Below, in pieces: positions 5,632 to 39,956 of a DNA stretch of 64,000 nt. The notes under the pieces were generated by a model. That model was not told the origin of the DNA, searched no databases, and saw only the letters and a list, made by a program, of their open reading frames with translations. Both the position numbers and the translations under genes were made by a program. Location of the stretch: assembly GCA_018396535.1 (NCBI GenBank), contig JAGTQC010000003.1:988-64987 (forward strand), read 5' to 3'. Source of the DNA: Candidatus Bathyarchaeota archaeon (GTDB lineage Archaea; Thermoproteota; CALKCG01; B24; DRYS01). Positions within the stretch are counted from its first letter, which is position 1. Every line of letters starts with the position of its first letter.

Positions 5632-5718
5632 GCCGGGGTAGCCTAGCCCGGTAAGGCGCCGGACTCGAGATCCGGTTCCCCTCATAGGGGATCAGGGGTT
5701 CAAATCCCCTCCCCGGCG
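5632..5718 (+). tRNA. tRNA-Ser (anticodon CGA) with a long variable arm
   Basis: Acceptor stem GCCGGGG/CCCCGGC. Anticodon stem CCGGA/TCCGG with loop CTCGAGA. Variable-arm stem CCCC/GGGG. T-arm GGGGTTCAAATCCCC. No encoded CCA. Confidence 0.85.
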
Positions 5719-10636: not shown

Positions 10637-11467
10637 CTATAGGTATGCAGGGCTGCATCTAACACCTTTATCCCTACATATCCTTTCTACTCGTCTTCTC
10701 ACATCCATCCACCATTCACTACTCCTTCTAGTTAGTAGAGGAAGTTTATCGATAGGGTAATTTCCATATTCCTCTAAAGCCATCCTCATCGAGTCTAAAA
10801 CCCACCTTCTCAAGTTAAGCTTATCGTATATGATCTCGCATCCTATACGTTTAGCATTATCCACTACTAGCTCTATACATCTATAATCATCATTTAGATA
10901 GGGTATTATAGGTCCTAGAAATATCCATGTATCTACACCTAGATTAGATACGGTTTCTAAGGCTGAGATTCTTCTCGATGGTGGTGGAGCCTTAGGCTCT
11001 ATTATTTTCGCAATATCTTCATCCATAGTTGTTATAGTTACTCCTACATCGAATAAGCTAGGCTTAATCAAATCTACATCTCTAACGATAAGATCAGATT
11101 TAGTCTGTATAGTTACATGGATATCACCTACGTCGGATAGAACTTCTACACATTGTCTAGTCAACATATACCTAGATTCTAAAGGCTGATAGGGGTCTGT
11201 AACGGTACCTATACCTATAACACCCTTAAACCTACCAGATCTAACCTCCTTCGCTAAGATTCTATGGATATTACGCTTAACTTTAACAAACCTACCCCAT
11301 GATAGAGCTTCAACCCTACCTCTAAGCATAGATCTACCATAACAGTATATACATCCATGCTCGCATCCTACATATGGGTTTAGAGCATAATCTACATCTG
11401 GAAGCCTACTAGGGATTAGTGCATATCTACACTCGACTACCGATACCCTTAGATAGTTATAATCCAA
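10637..11467 (-). CDS. Radical SAM protein of the SPL/DNA-repair-photolyase-like family (COG1533-like)
   Basis: CEHGCIYC CxxxCxxC cluster near the N-terminus. Size and architecture are typical of SplB-like rSAM proteins. Confidence 0.65.
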   Translation of the reverse strand: MDYNYLRVSVVECRYALIPSRLPDVDYALNPYVGCEHGCIYCYGRSMLRGRVEALSWGRFVKVKRNIHRILAKEVRSGRFKGVIGIGTVTDPYQPLESRYMLTRQCVEVLSDVGDIHVTIQTKSDLIVRDVDLIKPSLFDVGVTITTMDEDIAKIIEPKAPPPSRRISALETVSNLGVDTWIFLGPIIPYLNDDYRCIELVVDNAKRIGCEIIYDKLNLRRWVLDSMRMALEEYGNYPIDKLPLLTRRSSEWWMDVRRRVERICRDKGVRCSPAYL

Positions 11468-20775: not shown

Positions 20776-21651
20776 TTGACCCTTAACGATCTAGGTAAGC
20801 TTAGATATAGGTTTGAATGGATTAGAATACCCGTATTTACGGTAGAATGTCTGAGAAAGTCTCTGAGAGAATCTAGGATTACGCTAGATCTAGGTCTATC
20901 CTGGATCGAATGTAAAATCCTCGATAATTATCTGCATATAGGTGAACTACGTATAGATATATCTAGCATAGACGAGTTAAGGGATGAGCGTGCTATATAC
21001 ATCCTAGAAGATAATGTATTCAAGCCTATAGCATTTTGGGGTGGTAATCACTTCTATAAACTCGTATCTATCAAGTATGATACTGCACCTACGCTGGAGA
21101 TAGATGGGATACATATGCATAGAGTATCCGGTATAACCCCATGGAGCGATGCGAAACTTAAAGCTTCGTATCTAAGGATACGAAGAGGGATGAGGGTCTT
21201 AGATATAGGTACTGGTCTAGGCTATACAGCTATATGGTGTAGACGTATGGGTGCTTCGGTCTATACTGTGGAGAAGGATCCATGGGTTCTCAGGATTGCA
21301 TCCTATAATCCTTGGAGTAGATTCCTAGAGGATCCAGGTATATGTATACTACTCCTAGATGCGTGTAAACTCGTAGAGATTCTACCAGACTCAGTCTTTC
21401 ATAGAATACTCCATGATCCTCCTAGGTTTAGCTTAGCTGGAGAGTTATACAGCCTAGAATTCTATAGAGAGCTTTACAGGATACTAAGACCTGGAGGCCT
21501 ACTCTTACACTATACTGGTAGACCAGGTACGATTCAAGGTCGTAGACTTGTAAACGGTATCTCTCGTAGATTGCATGATGCTGGATTCGAAGATTTAGAA
21601 TGGATAGATGATGTTCAAGGCTTTAGATGTCTTAAACCTAGTCTCTCATAG
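20776..21651 (+). CDS. Class-I SAM-dependent methyltransferase with a D-P-P-(R)-F amino-methyltransferase-like motif and an N-terminal domain of unknown function
   Basis: VLDIGTGLGYTAI (motif I), HDPPRF (motif IV-like). 291 aa. Confidence 0.55.
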   Translation: MTLNDLGKLRYRFEWIRIPVFTVECLRKSLRESRITLDLGLSWIECKILDNYLHIGELRIDISSIDELRDERAIYILEDNVFKPIAFWGGNHFYKLVSIKYDTAPTLEIDGIHMHRVSGITPWSDAKLKASYLRIRRGMRVLDIGTGLGYTAIWCRRMGASVYTVEKDPWVLRIASYNPWSRFLEDPGICILLLDACKLVEILPDSVFHRILHDPPRFSLAGELYSLEFYRELYRILRPGGLLLHYTGRPGTIQGRRLVNGISRRLHDAGFEDLEWIDDVQGFRCLKPSLS

Positions 21652-23137
21652 CTTCTATCCTAAAGTTTGTGATACCCATCCGTCTACCAGCTCTCTCTAA
21701 TCTACGTAGACATTTACGTGTAAGTTTACCAACTTCATCTTCATCTACATAGATTACAGCTTCATCCCCTTGTATCTCGACTCTACACCTATCTACATAT
21801 CTATTCAGAACGTTTTCTAGAATGGATGATGTCTCCGATATCTCCCTACGCTTAATAGGTACAACAAACGTCCTCTCTCCGAAGACGTATATCTCGTATT
21901 CAACCTCTCCTGTGAGGTAATCCTTAACCTGGACTACAGGTCTAGCTAGATCGGAATCTCGTAGACCATGAGGTATCTTAACTATAGTCTCCAGAGAGTA
22001 GACCTTTGTAACGATACCATTCTCTAGGAATATAACCGTATCTATTATGGATGGTATCATACCTAGTTCAACTCTACCCACAAATCTTTGGATAGCATCT
22101 ATAGGGGAGGTAGCGTGGACAACCCCTATCATACCTACGCCAGCTAGCCTTAGATCTGCATATAGCTTGAAATCGTTTGTACCCCTCATCTCATCGAAAA
22201 CCGTATAATCCGGTCTACTTAGTAGGAGTACATCGTATATCTCATCAGGGTTTGAAACATTCTTAGAGTATTGAGTTATAGCTTCTGGAAGCTGTAGATC
22301 TCTAGGAGATTCTATAGTCTTAACGATCTTCCCTAGGCTTAGATAGTATTCGGCTAAGGCTTGAGCGAAGGTGGATTTACCCATACCCGGAGCTCCAGCT
22401 ATTAGAATACCTTCTGCTTGTGTTTCAAGTCTACTTACAAGCTTAGATGGCAGCTTATAATCCTTGAGCGTAAGTTTAACTATAGGTTTAACAGCCGTGA
22501 TCTCTAAACCATCGCTGAACGGTGGGTAAGTTACGACTATCCTATATGGCCCCATCTGGAATATCTTAGATCCATCCCTATCTATCTCTAAATATGCCTC
22601 TCCACTCCGCACCCTATCCATAAACCCCTCCACCAACGCTTCGAGATCTTCCCTACTCAAGATAACCTCTTCAAGAGTTTCAAAACGCCAATTACCTGGT
22701 GTACCGCGTTTAAGTCTAGGTTGAACCCCCTCCTTAAGATGAACGGACATGACATTCTCCTTGAAGAAGTCTTCGAGTTTAAGTTTAGAAGATGGAGGCA
22801 TATACATACATTTTACGTTTAAAGCCTCGGCTATACTAGCTAACGCTAGATCGCATGTAACTATCGTCGCATCTATCCTTAAAGCTTCTCCTATAAGAGC
22901 TTCAGGTGTTTCACTCTGTACAGGTAGTATGTTTAGCGATATACCCCTCTCTCTAAGAAGCTTCACAGATTCTTCTAGATTTTGGAGAAGCCATTTATCA
23001 CCGCTTAGAAATCTTTCACGTATCTTCCTTAGAACGATATCTGGTATTAATACCTCGGAATCAGGCATCTCCTCTAAGGCAAGCTTCCTAATGAAGCCAT
23101 TTCTCAACGCTGATAGATCTACTATAAACTTTGGCAA
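21638..23137 (-). CDS. PIN-domain / P-loop ATPase (PilT-like) / KH-domain protein (archaeal PINc-ATPase family)
   Basis: N-terminal PIN-like acidic residues. Walker A GAPGMGKST. C-terminal KH-like region. 499 aa. Confidence 0.65.
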   Translation of the reverse strand: MPKFIVDLSALRNGFIRKLALEEMPDSEVLIPDIVLRKIRERFLSGDKWLLQNLEESVKLLRERGISLNILPVQSETPEALIGEALRIDATIVTCDLALASIAEALNVKCMYMPPSSKLKLEDFFKENVMSVHLKEGVQPRLKRGTPGNWRFETLEEVILSREDLEALVEGFMDRVRSGEAYLEIDRDGSKIFQMGPYRIVVTYPPFSDGLEITAVKPIVKLTLKDYKLPSKLVSRLETQAEGILIAGAPGMGKSTFAQALAEYYLSLGKIVKTIESPRDLQLPEAITQYSKNVSNPDEIYDVLLLSRPDYTVFDEMRGTNDFKLYADLRLAGVGMIGVVHATSPIDAIQRFVGRVELGMIPSIIDTVIFLENGIVTKVYSLETIVKIPHGLRDSDLARPVVQVKDYLTGEVEYEIYVFGERTFVVPIKRREISETSSILENVLNRYVDRCRVEIQGDEAVIYVDEDEVGKLTRKCLRRLERAGRRMGITNFRIEAMRD

Positions 23138-23187: not shown

Positions 23188-24087
23188 CTAGGATAATAGG
23201 TGGCTATACCTCATAGCTGAGTCTGGTGCTAACGTTACGATAATGCCCTCCCTAAGTTCTTCAGCAATCTTTAAAGCTATACATAGATTCGCACCAGTGG
23301 AGAGACCGCCCATAATACCCTCAAATCTTATAGCATACCTCATATACTTCAACGCATCTTCAAATCCAACACTCTCCACTCTATCGATAAACCTACGGTA
23401 TCTTTCGTATATCCCAGGTATTCCGTTATGTGAAAGCCCCTCTATCCTCTCTCCTACCGAGCCTGGGCCATCGAGGATAGCAGCTCCTCTAGGCACTACT
23501 CCTACGATCTTTACGTTACTCAGCTTCTCTTTAAGATACATAGCTACCCCAGATATCGTCCCGCATGTACCTATACCCATAACGAAGGCATCAAGATACC
23601 CCCCAGTCTGCATATAGATTTCTCTAGCTGTCGTTTCATAGTGAGCTTTCACATTAGCTTCATTATCATATTGATTAAGGAATACCCCTCCCTCCCTATA
23701 CGCTATCTCCCTAGCAGTCTCTAGAGCTTTTCTATACCCACCAGATACTTCGACAACCTCTGCACCTAGAGCTTTAATCAATCCTATCTTAACAGGTGAA
23801 GCCTCCTCCTCTACGACTAATATCGCTTTATAACCCAGCCTCGATGCAACCCAAGCTACAGATAATGCTGTATTACCACTCGATGCCTCCACGATAACAC
23901 CGCCCGGCTTAAGTTTCCCCTGCCTCTCCGCCTCTCTAACCATATAGATAGCTATCCTATCCTTATGGCTACCAGTAGGATTCATATACTCTAACTTAAC
24001 TAGTACCCTAGCCATACCATCTCTTCTAAGCTTCTTAAGCTCTACTATCGGAGTACCCCCTACTAGGGATAGTATATCCCGATACAT
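23188..24087 (-). CDS. Cysteine synthase / O-phosphoserine sulfhydrylase family (PLP-dependent, fold type II)
   Basis: NPTGSHKDR PLP-lysine motif, SSGNT, and a GIGTCGT glycine loop. Confidence 0.8.
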   Translation of the reverse strand: MYRDILSLVGGTPIVELKKLRRDGMARVLVKLEYMNPTGSHKDRIAIYMVREAERQGKLKPGGVIVEASSGNTALSVAWVASRLGYKAILVVEEEASPVKIGLIKALGAEVVEVSGGYRKALETAREIAYREGGVFLNQYDNEANVKAHYETTAREIYMQTGGYLDAFVMGIGTCGTISGVAMYLKEKLSNVKIVGVVPRGAAILDGPGSVGERIEGLSHNGIPGIYERYRRFIDRVESVGFEDALKYMRYAIRFEGIMGGLSTGANLCIALKIAEELREGIIVTLAPDSAMRYSHLLS

Positions 24088-24353
24088 TCTATACCAGCCG
24101 CTTCTAGCTCTGCTAGGTGAAAGATTTAACCTCTCCTTTATCAGATCGCTATGTTAGATAAAAACTCTTCTAATAACTCCATCTTATAGAGCGTTATACG
24201 AGTCTAGCTCTATATGTAAGGATTTAACGATTCACCCCCTAAGACTATAATCACCGTTAAAGTTCTCATAATATGTCTGAATCTACGATGCAGTTCCGTC
24301 TGGATTGTAAGGAAATACATTTCTACTAGTTATCTTATTCTATATGTTTAGCT

Positions 24354-25424
24354 ATGCTATTCTTCATATTTACCACAGGCATATGTAATCTTAGATGCGA
24401 TTATTGTGGTGGAAGTTTCTCTGAAAGAATGGTTCCGGCTAAACCTGTATATGATATGGGTTCTCTCCTCAAGTTTCTCGAAGATACATATCCCGTATCC
24501 ATAGCATTCTATGGTGGGGAGCCTTTACTGAACGCTAAATTCATATCAGCGTTTATGGATAGGTTTGATGCTGAAAGATATATAATTCAAACTAATGGTC
24601 TACTAATTGATAGACTAGACCCTGCATATTGGCGTAGAATGGATACGATTCTGTTATCCATAGATGGTGTAGAGTATGTTACAGATAAGCATAGGGGTAT
24701 CGGCGTATATGATACAGTAGTTAGATCCGCTCGTAAGCTTAGGCTTATAGGCTTCGAGGGGGATCTTGTAGCGAGAATGACTGCTACAGAAGATACCGAT
24801 ATATATAGGGATGTATATCACCTTGTAGAGTTAAACCTATTCGATCATATCCATTGGCAGCTTAATGTCGTATGGTCTCCTCCATGGTCTAACTTCGAAG
24901 AATGGTGTAGAAGCTACCTAGATGGTTTAGTAAGGTTATTGGATCTATGGGTATATAAGATGGAGGATGAGGGGAGGGTTCTAGGGATAGCCCCCTTCCA
25001 GGGGTGTTTGAAACGTATCCTTCTAGGAGGATCCGCTCCTCCATGTGGTGCTGGTGTAGATGCATATGCGATATCTACAGATGGCTCTATCCTCGCATGC
25101 CCTATAGCGGTAGATGTAGAATGGGGTAGGTTAGGAGATATACGCTTAGATAGGTTCGGTGAATTGAAGAAAGCTCCAGAGATAGGTGAACCATGTACAT
25201 CTTGCATAGAGTTTAGGGTATGTGGAGGTAGATGTCTATACGCCTATATGGAGAGGCTGTGGGGTCTGGAAGGTTTCCGTAAGGTATGTAGTATAACACT
25301 ATCTATGATATCGCTTTTAAAGAGTCGTCTAGATACTATTATAGACTCTCTAGAATCTCACGGTCTATCATTAGATGATATAACCTACCCGCTGTTCAAT
25401 AATAGCGTAGAGATAATACCTTAA
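24354..25424 (+). CDS. Radical SAM enzyme with a C-terminal SPASM/twitch auxiliary-cluster domain (peptide or protein-modifying maturase-like)
   Basis: CNLRCDYC CxxxCxxC. GGEPLL. C-terminal Cys cluster CGAG...CP...CTSC...CGGRC. Confidence 0.7.
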   Translation: MLFFIFTTGICNLRCDYCGGSFSERMVPAKPVYDMGSLLKFLEDTYPVSIAFYGGEPLLNAKFISAFMDRFDAERYIIQTNGLLIDRLDPAYWRRMDTILLSIDGVEYVTDKHRGIGVYDTVVRSARKLRLIGFEGDLVARMTATEDTDIYRDVYHLVELNLFDHIHWQLNVVWSPPWSNFEEWCRSYLDGLVRLLDLWVYKMEDEGRVLGIAPFQGCLKRILLGGSAPPCGAGVDAYAISTDGSILACPIAVDVEWGRLGDIRLDRFGELKKAPEIGEPCTSCIEFRVCGGRCLYAYMERLWGLEGFRKVCSITLSMISLLKSRLDTIIDSLESHGLSLDDITYPLFNNSVEIIP

Positions 25425-25479: not shown

Positions 25480-26508
25480 TTGAAGGCTGCAATTCTATAT
25501 GCTCCATACGATATTAGAATCGAAGATATACCTAGACCAGAGGCGGGTTACGGAGAGGTTCTAGTTAGGATAAGAGCAGTAGGTATATGCGGATCAGATG
25601 TACATTTCTACACTACTGGTAAGTGTAGTGGCTTTGTAGTTAAGGAGCCATTAATACTTGGACATGAATGCTCAGGTGAAGTAGTAGATGTAGGTGATGG
25701 TGTAGATAACGTTAAAGTCGGTGATAGAGTTGCTGTGGAGCCAGGCTTCCCATGCGGTAGATGCTACTACTGTAGGATAGGCCGGTATAATCTATGCCCA
25801 GATGTCATTTTCTATGGGGCTCCTCCCATACATGGAGCATTTAGAGAGTACTCCATAGCTAAAGCGTCATTCGTCTATAGGATAGGTGGAGGTATGAGTT
25901 TCGAGGAAGCCGCTTTGATAGAGCCTCTAGCCGTAGGTATGCAAGCTGTAAAACGTAGTGGTATGGAGAGCGGATCTATCGCAGCTGTATTCGGATGCGG
26001 CCCTGTCGGTCTACTAACGATCCAGGCAGCTCTAGTTTCAGGTGCAGCATCGATTATAGCTATAGATCCAGTTGATTATCGAGCTAAGCTTGCTGAGGAG
26101 CTTGGTGCATCATATATCGTAAACCCTATAGAGACTGATGTGGTAGACTATGTAAGGAAATTAACTAATGGTATGGGTGTAGATGTCGTATTCGAAGCAT
26201 CTGGTAATCCTAAAGCTTTCAACGATGCATTGAAGGTTGTACGGCGTGGAGGAGTTGTAGTTCAGATAGGTATGTTTGGGGAGTATATAACGTTCGATCC
26301 TGCTCTTATAATAGATAAGGAGGTGGATATACGCGGAGTTTTCCGCTACGCCAACGTATACGAGCAGGCGATTAGACTTGCTTTATCTGGTCGTATTAAG
26401 CTTAAACCTCTAATAACGCATATATTCCCATTGGATAGAATTAAGGAAGCCTTCGATACCATAATAGAGAGAAGAGGGAATCCTGTGAAAGTTATAGTTA
26501 AACCATGA
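25480..26508 (+). CDS. Zinc-dependent alcohol/polyol dehydrogenase (a paralog of 12164-13264)
   Basis: GICGSDVHFY, GHECSGEVVDVG, CGRCYYC, GCGPVGL. Confidence 0.8.
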   Translation: MKAAILYAPYDIRIEDIPRPEAGYGEVLVRIRAVGICGSDVHFYTTGKCSGFVVKEPLILGHECSGEVVDVGDGVDNVKVGDRVAVEPGFPCGRCYYCRIGRYNLCPDVIFYGAPPIHGAFREYSIAKASFVYRIGGGMSFEEAALIEPLAVGMQAVKRSGMESGSIAAVFGCGPVGLLTIQAALVSGAASIIAIDPVDYRAKLAEELGASYIVNPIETDVVDYVRKLTNGMGVDVVFEASGNPKAFNDALKVVRRGGVVVQIGMFGEYITFDPALIIDKEVDIRGVFRYANVYEQAIRLALSGRIKLKPLITHIFPLDRIKEAFDTIIERRGNPVKVIVKP

Positions 26509-26527: not shown

Positions 26528-28087
26528 ATGTCTAGAATATTCTATTCTAGCGATATACGGCGTATAGAAGTTAATGCTAGATTCCTAGGCTTATCTGAGC
26601 TTCAGATGATGGAGTCAGCTGGTAGAGCTGTAGCAGACTATATATCCAGTAGGTTTAAGCCTTGTAGAGTTGCTGTATACTGTGGTCTAGGCGGAAATGG
26701 TGGTGATGGATTAGTAGCAGCTAGGTATCTAGCTTCTCGTGGATTCGATGTTAAGGTAGTGCTAGTCGGTTATCCAGATAGAATCTCTCATAGAGGTACA
26801 CGGGAGAACTGGTTTCTCGTATCACGTCTAAATACGATAGATACATACATAGCTTCTGATAGCTTATCCATACCTAAGATAGAAGCTGAAGTATATATCG
26901 ATGCACTATTAGGCGTCGGCGTTAGAGGTGAGGTTAAACCTCCGATATCCGAAGCTATAGGAGTACTCAACGGTATGAAAGGCTTTAAGATATCTATAGA
27001 CGTACCGTCCGGTCTCGATTCTGATACAGGTGAAATACTAGGTTGCGCAGTTAAAGCCGATACTACGATTACTATACACGGTGTTAAGCCAGGTCTAAGA
27101 CTTAGACCAGATTACGTAGGTGAAATAGTAGTCGTAGATGTAGGTATCCCCCGTGAAACCGAGTTATACGCTGGACCAGGGGATCTTAGAATTGTCATTA
27201 AGCCTAGGAAGACGAAATCTCATAAGGGCGACTATGGTAGAGTCCTCGTGATAGGAGGAAGTGAAGTATTCACAGGTGCACCCACCCTAACAGCTTTAGC
27301 AGCTTTCGAAGTAGGTGTAGATCTAGTAGTAGTTGCAGCCCCTGAAGTTACTGGCTTAGTCATATCCTCCTATACGCCAAACCTTATAGTGGTTAAACTT
27401 CCTGGAGGCCACTTAAAGAAGAGCCACCTCGACGTTCTTAAAGAGTGGATAAATCGATGTGATTCAGTAGCTATAGGTCCAGGATTAGGTCTCAAAGAAG
27501 AGACTATAGCGGCTGTCCAGCTTATCGTAAGCGAGGTAGTGGAAGCTAGGAAGCCTATAGTAATAGATGCTGATGCTTTGAAAGCTCTACCTAGAGAGTC
27601 TAAGTTTAAGAGGTTAGCTGTTTTAACACCTCATCAAGGTGAGTTCCGCATCCTTACAGGAGTAACTCTTCCAGAAAGACTAGTGGATAGAGGTGTGGTA
27701 GTATCCGAGTGGGCTGAGAAGTTTGAGGCGGTAATCCTACTTAAGGGCCCGGTTGATATAATCTCTGATGGGAAGAATATAAGATACAACTTTACGGGAA
27801 ACCCTGCTATGACGGTAGGGGGTACTGGAGATGTTCTTACAGGATTAGTAGCCGGCTTCCTAGCTCAAGGCTTCTCACCGTTTGATGCAGGGTTAGCGGC
27901 AGCATTCCTTAACGGGGCAGCTGGGGATCTAGCTGTAGAATCTAAGCCGTATATAGTAGCTACAGATCTACTCGATCACATAAAGGCTGTGATAAGCTAT
28001 ATCCTAAACGATGAGATTGAGACCCTCTCCTCTAAGATACTAGCTAAAAAAGATTTAAGAAGGATTATCAAGGAGATCGAAGGCTAG
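26528..28087 (+). CDS. nnr: Bifunctional NAD(P)H-hydrate repair enzyme Nnr (YjeF-N epimerase + ADP-dependent dehydratase)
   Basis: YCGLGGNGGDGLVAARYL (YjeF-N). C-terminal carbohydrate-kinase-like GPGLG...GTGDVL motifs. 519 aa. Confidence 0.8.
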   Translation: MSRIFYSSDIRRIEVNARFLGLSELQMMESAGRAVADYISSRFKPCRVAVYCGLGGNGGDGLVAARYLASRGFDVKVVLVGYPDRISHRGTRENWFLVSRLNTIDTYIASDSLSIPKIEAEVYIDALLGVGVRGEVKPPISEAIGVLNGMKGFKISIDVPSGLDSDTGEILGCAVKADTTITIHGVKPGLRLRPDYVGEIVVVDVGIPRETELYAGPGDLRIVIKPRKTKSHKGDYGRVLVIGGSEVFTGAPTLTALAAFEVGVDLVVVAAPEVTGLVISSYTPNLIVVKLPGGHLKKSHLDVLKEWINRCDSVAIGPGLGLKEETIAAVQLIVSEVVEARKPIVIDADALKALPRESKFKRLAVLTPHQGEFRILTGVTLPERLVDRGVVVSEWAEKFEAVILLKGPVDIISDGKNIRYNFTGNPAMTVGGTGDVLTGLVAGFLAQGFSPFDAGLAAAFLNGAAGDLAVESKPYIVATDLLDHIKAVISYILNDEIETLSSKILAKKDLRRIIKEIEG

Positions 28088-34081: not shown

Positions 34082-34378
34082 ATGTGTATAGTAGTGTTGT
34101 GGGGTATGCCTCGTTATATACTGAGGGTTTGTATGCCTGCTAGGGATTGGCATAGAGTATCTGATTTCGTATCCGATATAAAGAATTCCAGGGTTATAAA
34201 ACGTATAGTGACGAGAATATTTCCTGATAGACCTGATTTAGATGCGTTAGAATTGGTTCTTTTAATCGAGTGTTCGAAGAGTTATGTGTTGGAGATCGAG
34301 AGGGAGCTGGCATCTAGGACTTGCGGTACCATAGGCTTCTTCGTGATATATCCTCTAACCGATAACTCGATGGCTTAA
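34082..34378 (+). CDS. Small hypothetical protein (98 aa) upstream of the GH127 gene; coding status uncertain
   Basis: ORF only. No recognisable motif. Confidence 0.2.
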   Translation: MCIVVLWGMPRYILRVCMPARDWHRVSDFVSDIKNSRVIKRIVTRIFPDRPDLDALELVLLIECSKSYVLEIERELASRTCGTIGFFVIYPLTDNSMA

Positions 34379-39883: not shown

Positions 39884-39956
39884 AGCCGGGGAGGGGATTC
39901 GAACCCCTGTGATGCGGGTCTGCAGCCCGCCGCCTACGCCTCTCAGCCACCCCGGC
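39884..39956 (-). tRNA. tRNA-Cys (anticodon GCA)
   Basis: Minus-strand sequence GCCGGGG...GCGGG-CTGCAGA-CCCGC...AGGGGTTCGAATCCCCT-CCCCGGC-T. 73 nt, no encoded CCA. Confidence 0.8.

Follow-up and report, generated by a model that had tools for sequence, protein, structure and literature searches.

What does a radical SAM/SPASM enzyme act on when nothing beside its gene looks like a substrate? The question arises in a 64-kb stretch of archaeal DNA (64,000 nucleotides, hereafter the window), which carries an intact gene for a 356-residue radical SAM/SPASM protein (Table 1). An initial annotation had described this open reading frame, its CxxxCxxC motif and a Cys-rich C-terminal region, and all three are present as described. 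Its further claim that no substrate or partner gene lies adjacent also holds. It called the enzyme an orphan and pointed to small ORFs in the upstream spacer as candidate substrates.

Profile searches place the gene in a curated archaeal family that the initial annotation had missed. NCBIfam model TIGR04084 matches the protein end to end (residues 5-356 on profile positions 1-347 of 347) at 415.1 bits, against a cutoff of 225. The model bears the title 'putative peptide-modifying radical SAM enzyme, AF0577 family'. The main Pfam match is to PF04055 (48.6 bits, cutoff 29.5), with a weaker match to PF13353 (Fer4_12), and the combination of this core with the CxxxCxxC motif assigns the protein to the radical SAM superfamily at the sequence level. 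Homologues number 1631 at E<1e-5, with identities of 50-91% among the top 120, and the closest relatives are all archaeal proteins of 345-375 aa. Because the gene belongs to this widespread family, its "orphan" status is a property of the family as a whole: the label is right in that no substrate gene is adjacent, but it does not distinguish this locus. The window's copy is ordinary, and nothing sets it apart from other members. We are highly confident that the gene is an intact, stand-alone TIGR04084 orthologue and that the small ORFs of the spacer arose by chance. In a literature search the term 'TIGR04084' was absent and the listed matches to 'AF0577' were unrelated (accession or catalogue numbers, for example); searches for peptide-modifying radical SAM enzymes in archaea, or for SPASM together with kodakarensis, found only papers on lipid enzymes.

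Table 1. Coordinates of the gene, its motifs, the upstream spacer and the flanking genes, in window positions.
Feature	Position	Strand	Basis or remark
Divergent PLP enzyme	23188..24087	-	cysteine-synthase-like
Divergent intergenic spacer, 266 nt	24088..24353		
Lineage-specific spacer part, about 190 nt	24119..24308	.	alignments with close relatives
18-codon ORF MSESTMQFRLDCKEIHFY plus stop	24273..24329	+	rejected as gene; chance ORF
AAGGAAATACATTTCTAC	24309..24326	+	sole upstream block kept in 75%-identical relatives; candidate BRE/TATA element
Radical SAM/SPASM gene	24354..25424	+	full-length NCBIfam TIGR04084 (rSAM_AF0577) member
AdoMet-binding [4Fe-4S] motif C11-x3-C15-x2-C18	24384..24407	+	read from sequence
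SPASM region, residues 231-312, seven Cys, two predicted auxiliary [4Fe-4S] clusters	25044..25289	+	TIGR04085
Tail Y345-P-x-F-N-N-S/T-x-E353-I-I-P356-COOH, stop codon directly after	25386..25421	+	family alignments
Zn-ADH	25480..26508		Tdh-like
Nnr	26528..28087		two domains

Judged by its motifs, the protein is a three-cluster radical SAM/SPASM enzyme without an N-terminal recognition domain. Its radical SAM motif already begins at residue 11. PF04055 and PF13353 are the sole Pfam matches, with no hit to an RRE or PqqD-like domain, and no neighboring gene is conserved across 85 lineages. C11, C15 and C18 are invariant in two family alignments, with Cys in 317-318 of 324 sequences and gaps from truncated N-termini in the rest. 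Seven further cysteines (PPC231GAG ... AC249P ... C281TSC284 ... C290GGRC294 ... C312) follow the SPASM spacing C-x9-15-G-x4-C ... C-x2-C-x5-6-C-x3-C ... C. TIGR04085 recognizes this SPASM domain at 30.3 bits (cutoff 27); PF13186 was not detected in the Pfam search of the protein. Six of the seven positions are essentially invariant among the 324 sequences; at the seventh, position 312, 219 sequences have Cys and the other 105, which form one clade, have Asp. In our reading of the phmmer alignment to the anaerobic sulfatase-maturating enzyme (anSME) structure 4K37, these cysteines fall on the cluster-binding positions of anSME. The AlphaFold model has a pLDDT of 93.4. Peptide or protein modifiers lead by a wide margin: they account for the five best structural matches of the model and for all the best non-self HMM matches of the protein.

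Upstream, the gene faces a hypervariable divergent intergenic region. The initial annotation had called this 266-nt stretch a leader; the stretch exists, but its role as a leader was an assumption, and only the last ~45 nt are conserved in relatives whose protein is 75% identical. Spacers in close relatives measure 79, 279 or 381 nt and are mostly unalignable; in the L019 and L021 lineages the whole spacer is 79 nt. L019, L020 and L021 lack the lineage-specific part, L018 has it with indels, and L109 carries unrelated sequence in its place; we do not count this part as belonging to the functional unit of the gene. The block AAGGAAATACATTTCTAC, which aligns with AGGGAAATAAACTTATAT in L019 and L021 and ends 27 nt before the ATG, is probably a BRE/TATA promoter element. 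A promoter at this distance would give a 5' UTR no longer than about 10 nt. Other readings of the spacer were rejected. For a mobile element, we found no repeats of it in the window and no inverted repeats; for an ncRNA, the Rfam hits at 24108-24192 were to eukaryotic C/D snoRNA models with E values of 3-7, far below gathering scores. Sigma-70 and terminator scans of the spacer stayed at background level, with models that are not applicable to archaea.

The flanking genes sit where the initial annotation had placed them, although two of its three names are less secure than stated. Both domains of Nnr pass their cutoffs, but the PLP enzyme scores 270 against a curated cutoff of 344 and the Zn-ADH is likewise below its curated cutoff. 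Synteny with these three genes is confined to relatives at least 74% identical. We extended the comparison to the neighbors within 5 kb in about 85 lineages, dereplicated at 85% identity; the metagenomic contigs in this survey were mostly short, the ORF calling was crude, and genes were clustered by BLAST. No neighbor is conserved across the 85 lineages, and the commonest family within 5 kb is a generic ABC ATPase, found in 7. What looked like recurrent neighbors were helicases, ABC ATPases, PhoU and phosphatases, all generic paralogues, or reflected synteny limited to Thermofilaceae, and a ThiN/ThiR-like neighbor, within 10 kb in only 3 independent lineages, was too weak to retain. On the upstream side of family genes the median intergenic gap is 65 nt, on the downstream side 43 nt. 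A class I aminoacyl-tRNA synthetase gene (LeuRS, IleRS, ValRS or CysRS) adjoins the family gene in 4-5 independent lineages, compared with about 0.5 expected by a post hoc estimate.

A further feature of the family lies at its extreme C-terminus. E-[IV]-[IVM]-P closes all 81 full-length members of a dereplicated set, in which Y is invariant at position -12, and the same ending occurs in 320 of 324 unique family sequences. Among full-length representatives of 50% clusters, reaching down to 28% identity, 92 of 96 end in [ED]-x-x-P. At the level of these alignments, the fixed E-x-(I/V)-P-COOH ending of nearly all members is a previously unreported feature. In the AlphaFold model the tail has no secondary structure assigned by DSSP, and the last two 10-residue blocks, which span it, average pLDDT values of 93 and 85. 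The tail type co-varies with the seventh SPASM ligand (Cys or Asp), a co-variation that is confounded by phylogeny; one sister clade has a Cys at tail position -5. A possible functional analogue is the tail of MoaA (GTP 3',8-cyclase), a radical SAM enzyme of the twitch/SPASM class, whose strictly conserved extreme C-terminus is essential for catalysis and has been proposed to enter the active site and close it off (PMC9026282).

Fusions and distant relatives offer further leads. In one distant relative from bacteria the protein is joined to a SET protein-lysine methyltransferase domain, a fusion that weakly favors protein substrates. A true family member, P0267 (353 bits), is fused to an APH-type small-molecule kinase (the fusion is listed as P0267/P0403). 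On two contigs, a 29%-identical relative with the same tail sits between a nucleotide cyclase and a PycTM effector, and this operon hints at nucleotide chemistry in the wider superfamily. A plasmid search with this Pycsar-linked relative returned generic SPASM enzymes only. Identity with a prokaryotic viperin was rejected: the pVip models match only an N-terminal part (residues 8-116, 40.8 bits), and NCBIfam viperin_w_prok scores 33.7 against a cutoff of 180 bits.

Archaea also use radical SAM enzymes in lipid biosynthesis, among them Tes/GDGT-MAS, Gms, Grs and Cds. Tes and Gms have SPASM domains and are often unlinked to substrate genes, and Grs, Gmm and Ted are B12-radical SAM enzymes. Gms is described as longer than 420 aa, with an N-terminal six-helix domain before the radical SAM core and homologues of 467-548 aa (PMC11186832); that description sets it apart from a 356-aa protein with its motif at residue 11. 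Architecture and fold score led us to reject Gms, Tes, Grs, Ted and Gmm. Cds is Saci_1489, and deletion of another radical SAM gene, Saci_0343, gave no calditol phenotype according to a review; that either locus corresponds to the Sulfolobus orthologue of the family is only a candidate match.

Several explanations compete for these observations. The initial annotation had raised a cryptic RiPP system, with a tiny spacer ORF such as MSESTMQFRLDCKEIHFY as precursor. That ORF exists at 24273..24326 with one Cys and a stop at 24327-24329 (18 codons, not the 17 first reported), and relatives of the enzyme include thioether-forming RiPP maturases. It does not behave like a gene, however. In L018, whose protein is 91% identical, its start ATG reads ATC, an ATG within it reads ATA, and the stop TAG stands in place of the Cys codon TGT; it is missing in the 75%-identical L019 and L021 and replaced by unrelated sequence in the 79%-identical L109. 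The only conserved stretch it overlaps, at its 3' end, is the promoter-like AAGGAAATACATTTCTAC block. No Shine-Dalgarno-like motif precedes it, and a 2-nt indel in the L018 alignment falls within a minus-strand 36-aa ORF of the same spacer. ORFs of this kind are expected by chance: among random spacers generated at the same composition with a first-order Markov model, 59% hold one or more ATG ORFs of at least 18 codons (mean 0.83 per spacer, 2 observed). The initial annotation had itself held that a lack of conservation in related genomes would count against the small ORFs, and conservation is lacking. Nor did small ORFs of 15-120 aa within 600 nt of the gene recur across about 85 lineages, apart from out-of-frame translations of neighbors and tRNA genes. 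RiPP maturases of the sacti- or ranthipeptide, PQQ or mycofactocin type fit no better, given that the family has no conserved adjacent precursor and no RRE. CteB (PDB 5WGG) has both an N-terminal RRE and an adjacent precursor gene, whereas our protein has neither, and identity with the ranthipeptide maturase PapB was rejected at 84.3 bits against the NF047865 equivalog cutoff of 340. We regard a precursor in the spacer as extremely improbable. Another reading is a housekeeping anSME that would install formylglycine in a sulfatase encoded elsewhere. In its favor, anSME is the best PDB sequence match (E 9e-12) and the second-best fold match (322 residues aligned), and it likewise lacks an RRE. 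Yet the equivalog models TIGR03942 and NF010321 give 49.2 bits against 349.45 and 37.3 against 441, and identity to anSMEcpe (PDB 4K36/4K37) is 22%. Our protein lacks the second AuxI Cys of anSME (CGMNGTCTC), the invariant E-x-I-P tail belongs to the TIGR04084 side, and TIGR04084 is a separate curated model. A crude motif scan of the 64-kb window turned up no sulfatase-like protein, meaning one of sulfatase size with C/S-x-P-x-R. This assignment, too, is very improbable.

The tail itself could be the substrate or a built-in cofactor precursor, modified in cis or between subunits. MftC and PqqE, which act on C-terminal residues of small peptides, provide a precedent, and the invariant tail length, the fixed Pro-COOH end in >95% of members, the sister-clade Cys and the co-variation with the seventh SPASM ligand would all suit such a role. 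Against this, a conserved housekeeping gene would be a wasteful way to encode a single-turnover enzyme, the tail of the core clade contains no Cys, and a structural or gating role like that in MoaA explains the same data more simply; we consider self-modification most unlikely. A SPASM enzyme acting on a conserved small molecule (nucleotide, cofactor intermediate or polar lipid head group, for example) is harder to set aside. SPASM/twitch enzymes that act on small molecules or lipids include BtrN, AhbD, BlsE, MoaA, Tes and Gms. High conservation without genomic linkage is equally typical of cofactor and nucleotide enzymes, the nucleotide enzymes MoaA and viperin are detectable relatives, and both the kinase fusion in a bona fide member and the cyclase/PycTM setting point the same way. 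In several lineages the gene has enzymes of amino-acid or cofactor metabolism as neighbors: a PLP enzyme, aminotransferases, ThiN, an M20 peptidase and a GATase. The closest structural and HMM matches are nevertheless peptide or protein modifiers, no pathway genes recur beside the gene in 85 lineages, and the known archaeal lipid enzymes differ in architecture. We treat a small-molecule substrate as possible but doubtful.

On balance, we favor a stand-alone TIGR04084 orthologue that would act in trans, its conserved substrate, probably a protein, being encoded at an unlinked site in the genome. By analogy with the nearest neighbors, and given the absence of linkage, we put the chance that the substrate is a protein at about even. 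It would most likely be a segment of a folded protein recognized directly in the barrel, rather than a leader-tagged RiPP precursor; anSME and QhpD recognize their substrates in this direct manner. The C11/C15/C18 cluster would reductively cleave SAM to the 5'-deoxyadenosyl radical, which would abstract a hydrogen atom from the substrate. The two SPASM clusters would then carry an electron away, for a net two-electron oxidation or a cross-link. Predicted ligands are C231, C249 and C294 for AuxI, apparently with one free coordination site as in CteB, and C281, C284, C290 and C312 for AuxII. By analogy with MoaA, the C-terminal tail probably folds back and seals or gates the active site or the cluster region.

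The locus itself carries little weight, being a routine orthologue for which the RiPP idea is refuted. The family is another matter. Named matches come from Thermofilum, Thermoproteus, Vulcanisaeta, Sulfolobales, Acidilobales, Bathyarchaeia, Korarchaeia, Nezhaarchaeales and Nitrososphaerales, and further from Thermoplasmata, Methanogenium, Njord-, Heimdall- and Hodarchaeota and a DPANN archaeon. Sequence conservation is unusually high: identities across TACK and Asgard lineages are 45-60%, with more distant members (about 36-43%) in one methanogen and one DPANN archaeon. Orthologues occur in Sulfolobus acidocaldarius (AAY79790.1 / WP_048054384.1) and Saccharolobus islandicus (ACR40664.1, ADX81400.1), and since these organisms are genetically tractable, the question of function is directly testable. 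The universal E-x-I-P tail is a concrete handle for mutagenesis, and the defense-island relatives are a second lead into the chemistry of the family. We speculate, tentatively, that TIGR04084 enzymes carry out an undescribed pan-archaeal posttranslational modification (a thioether, a C-C cross-link or a C-alpha/C-beta oxidation) on a conserved protein, possibly of the translation apparatus, with the tail as a gate; if so, the gene in the window is one orthologue of that maturase. For a conserved single-gene family that extends from Sulfolobales to Asgard and DPANN archaea, the target is likely to be a conserved piece of archaeal biology.

The gene under study is an uninterrupted frame of 356 codons, and its product carries both features that the initial annotation had read in it: C11-x3-C15-x2-C18, the radical SAM motif, and a C-terminal third rich in Cys. 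The motif starts at residue 11, and there is no N-terminal domain. TIGR04084 (rSAM_AF0577) of NCBIfam matches the protein end to end and, at 415 bits, clears its cutoff of 225. The runner-up models PapB, CbpB, anSME and QhpD all score far under their own cutoffs (84 bits against 340 for PapB), the SPASM model TIGR04085 passes narrowly (30.3 bits against 27), and Pfam gives PF04055 as the main match and PF13353 as a weaker one. Because of this match pattern, we assign the gene by sequence to a family that is curated, archaeal and functionally uncharacterised. The gene adds one more member to a family already known. A literature search did not find the term TIGR04084 in the searched text. The same comparison rules out anSME, an identity considered in the initial annotation: at 49 bits, the score is far below the equivalog cutoff of 349.

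The family is broad. A word-indexed search returned 1631 homologues at E<1e-5, the best 120 of which are 50-91% identical over their full length. Members occur in the Thermoproteota (Thermofilum, Infirmifilum, Thermoproteus, Vulcanisaeta, Caldivirga, Sulfolobales, Acidilobales, Desulfurococcales), elsewhere in TACK (Bathyarchaeia, Korarchaeia, Nezhaarchaeales, Methanomethylicia, Nitrososphaeria, Nitrososphaerales), among euryarchaea (Thermoplasmata, Methanogenium), in Asgard lineages (Njord-, Heimdall- and Hodarchaeota) and in DPANN (Tiddalikarchaeum). Of the cluster Cys, the three in the radical SAM motif and six of the seven in SPASM are all but invariant over 324 unique sequences. The seventh SPASM ligand, C312 here, is Cys in 219 and Asp in 105; Asp marks a Sulfolobales/Acidilobales/Vulcanisaeta clade (locus L095, 8001-9053; proteins P0121-P0200). 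In the alignment, the second Cys of the auxiliary cluster AuxI, present in anSME, is missing from the window protein, so that one coordination site of AuxI seems to be left open, as in CteB. The five best structural matches are all peptide or protein modifiers, and below them rank BlsE (17.7), MoaA (16.0), PqqE (14.9), the lipid enzyme GDGT-MAS (13.2) and BtrN (11.6). The modelled fold is anSME/CteB-like.

The initial annotation missed a hallmark of the family at its C terminus. All 81 dereplicated members end in E-[IV]-[IVM]-P directly before the stop codon and have an invariant Tyr at position -12; the same ending closes 320 of 324 unique sequences. The form [ED]-x-x-P ends 92 of the 96 full-length 50%-cluster representatives, a set that extends to bacteria and down to 28% identity. 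In a sister clade, position -5 is Cys, and the Asp-type clade reads Y-D-P-T-x-D-S-T-E-V-I-P against the usual Y-P-x-F-N-N-T-x-E-I-I-P. Tail type co-varies with Cys or Asp at the seventh SPASM ligand, an association confounded by phylogeny, and the exchange is possibly a ligand switch at the second auxiliary cluster, AuxII. In the structural model, the last two 10-residue blocks, which span the tail, average pLDDT values of 93 and 85, with no secondary structure assigned to the tail. A literature search found no description of the TIGR04084 tail. By analogy with MoaA, whose C-terminal tail is essential (PMC9026282), we propose that this tail acts as a seal or gate for the active site or the cluster region.

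Features in the window, with model scores in bits
Feature	Coordinates	Strand	Remarks
tRNA gene	5632-5718	+	87 nt
Second, unrelated radical SAM gene	10637-11467	-	276 aa; CEHGCIYC at residue 35; best model PA0069 family, 156 vs cutoff 360
ATPase	21638-23137	-	499 aa; NF010335, 587 vs 340; Holliday-junction branch-migration ATPase PINA, 533 vs cutoff 800
PLP enzyme, cysteine-synthase-like, divergent	23188-24087	-	270 vs cutoff 344
Radical SAM/SPASM gene	24354-25424	+	TIGR04084
C-terminal tail	25386-25421		residues 345-356; ends [ED]-x-(I/V)-P-COOH, nearly family- and superfamily-wide (loci L001-L110, proteins P0001-P0432)
Zn-dependent dehydrogenase, threonine-dehydrogenase-like	25480-26508		below model cutoff
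Nnr, bifunctional	26528-28087		both domains above cutoff
Small Cys-containing ORF	34082-34378	+	98 aa; 4 Cys; CMPAR at residues 17-21
tRNA gene	39884-39956	-

The flanking PLP enzyme, Zn-dependent dehydrogenase (ADH) and Nnr are as initially described, the first two below model cutoffs. Their order around the radical SAM gene is kept in the close relatives L018 (91% protein identity), L109 (79%) and L019-L021 (75%). The ATPase keeps its synteny with the PLP gene in close relatives. The spacer between the PLP and radical SAM genes, 266 nt in the window, measures 279, 381 and 79 nt among these relatives. Within it, the small ORF put forward as a RiPP precursor is present at 24273..24326, with 18 codons rather than 17, and it is not conserved. 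In L018, its ATG reads ATC, an internal ATG reads ATA and TAG stands in place of the Cys codon; the same alignment also shows an indel of 2 nt inside a 36-aa minus-strand ORF. About 190 nt of the spacer (24119-24308) are absent from L019 and L021, and the L109 spacer is unalignable and encodes no related peptide. ATG-initiated ORFs of at least 18 codons appear by chance in 59% of random spacers of the same composition. Upstream, the 75%-identical relatives keep a single block, AAGGAAATACATTTCTAC (24309-24326), which ends 27 nt before the ATG. We read it as a probable BRE/TATA promoter, which would leave a leader no longer than about 10 nt.

No copy of the spacer was found elsewhere within the window, and Rfam gave sub-threshold matches only. 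Three eukaryotic C/D-box snoRNA models overlap at 24108-24192 (+), with 14.6-16.3 bits and E of 3.7-6.3, far below gathering scores, in a lineage-specific part of the spacer also found in L018. Inspection by eye revealed no convincing C/D boxes there, and these matches are probably noise. The 98-aa ORF, some 9 kb away from the radical SAM gene and upstream of a GH127-like gene, fits the loose FGly-type pattern C-x-P-x-R, most likely by coincidence; L018 and L019 have ORFs of similar size without a Pfam match at this position. The 87-nt tRNA gene is longer than standard and may contain an intron or a long variable arm.

Family-wide context was drawn from 17 loci of species genomes, 80 from metagenomes found by alignment query and several obtained by exact look-up, dereplicated at 85% identity to 85 lineages; ORF calling was mechanical and most metagenomic contigs are short. 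The commonest neighbour family within 5 kb, a generic ABC ATPase, occurs in 7 of the 85 lineages, and the PLP/ADH/Nnr arrangement is limited to the window's close relatives. The adjoining genes lie close, with a median gap of 65 nt on the upstream and 43 nt on the downstream side, which at most loci is too little for a precursor gene to fit in. When all frames of 15-120 aa within 600 nt were clustered by profile, no conserved small ORF emerged beyond alternative-frame translations of neighbours, tRNA genes and one clade-specific HTH protein. With no neighbour or small ORF conserved, short gaps and no RiPP recognition element (RRE) in the protein, the cryptic-RiPP idea is rejected. The context is typical of a housekeeping enzyme that has its substrate gene at another locus.

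A class I aminoacyl-tRNA synthetase gene lies directly beside the family gene in 4-5 independent lineages, where about 0.5 are expected by chance: LeuRS in L105 (7080-9908) and L103 (1875-4733), IleRS in L064 (3-1268), ValRS in L074 (1-828) and CysRS in L099 (6398-7990). In L110 (3653-6493), IleRS is one gene away. This count was made post hoc and involves different synthetases, so we treat it as a lead only.

What is established is the family membership, the cluster-binding residues, the fold and the lack of an RRE and of linked genes. In the mechanism that we envisage, the C11/C15/C18 cluster would cleave SAM, and the enzyme would abstract a hydrogen atom from its substrate. AuxI would be held by C231, C249 and C294 with an open site, and AuxII by C281, C284 and C290 with C312 or Asp; together they would complete a two-electron oxidation or a cross-link. 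The enzyme would work like anSME, the CteB/PapB-type thioether synthases and the lipid-modifying Gms or Tes, yet it is a member of none of them. A protein substrate is the reading we favour, with little more than even confidence, because all nearest relatives modify proteins or peptides, because the two relatives that lack an RRE, anSME and QhpD, have full-size proteins as substrates, and because one distant bacterial relative carries a fused SET protein-lysine methyltransferase domain. A small-molecule substrate is a serious rival, of lower but appreciable probability. It draws on a true TIGR04084 member fused to an APH-type kinase and on a 29%-identical relative whose gene, in two contigs, has a nucleotide cyclase on one side and a PycTM effector on the other.

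The SET fusion (881 aa, with a TIGR04084-like rSAM/SPASM domain; L106 8001-10646, Pseudodesulfovibrio indicus CP014206.1) is preceded by a second radical SAM gene and adjoins an AAA_13 gene and a CBASS-like cluster (SMODS/DncV-like, E1/E2, JAB, SAVED). The APH fusion, seen in one lineage (P0267/P0403, from MAG contigs of 3-4.5 kb), joins a TIGR04084 domain (353 bits) to an N-terminal homoserine-kinase/CotS-like phosphotransferase, PF01636. The 29%-identical protein, P0372, ends in ...STEIIP and scores 177 bits with TIGR04084, below the cutoff. Its three-gene operon (L107 1927-4262; L108 7065-9478) consists of a Guanylate_cyc-domain protein, the rSAM/SPASM gene and a PycTM 2TM effector, and adjoins Abi_alpha in two independent contigs. 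It is a defence operon of Pycsar-like type in which a radical SAM enzyme is embedded; PADLOC gave no match for the cyclase, and among the papers listed by a literature search none connects Pycsar with radical SAM.

What TIGR04084 does is a question for the whole family, and it is testable since Sulfolobus and Saccharolobus carry orthologues. The S. acidocaldarius orthologue is AAY79790.1 / Q4JBN9 (L105 6001-7053). According to a review, Zeng et al. 2018 deleted the radical SAM gene Saci_0343 with no calditol phenotype (PMC13459092). If Saci_0343 is the TIGR04084 orthologue, the family would be non-essential in Sulfolobus and a mutant would already exist.
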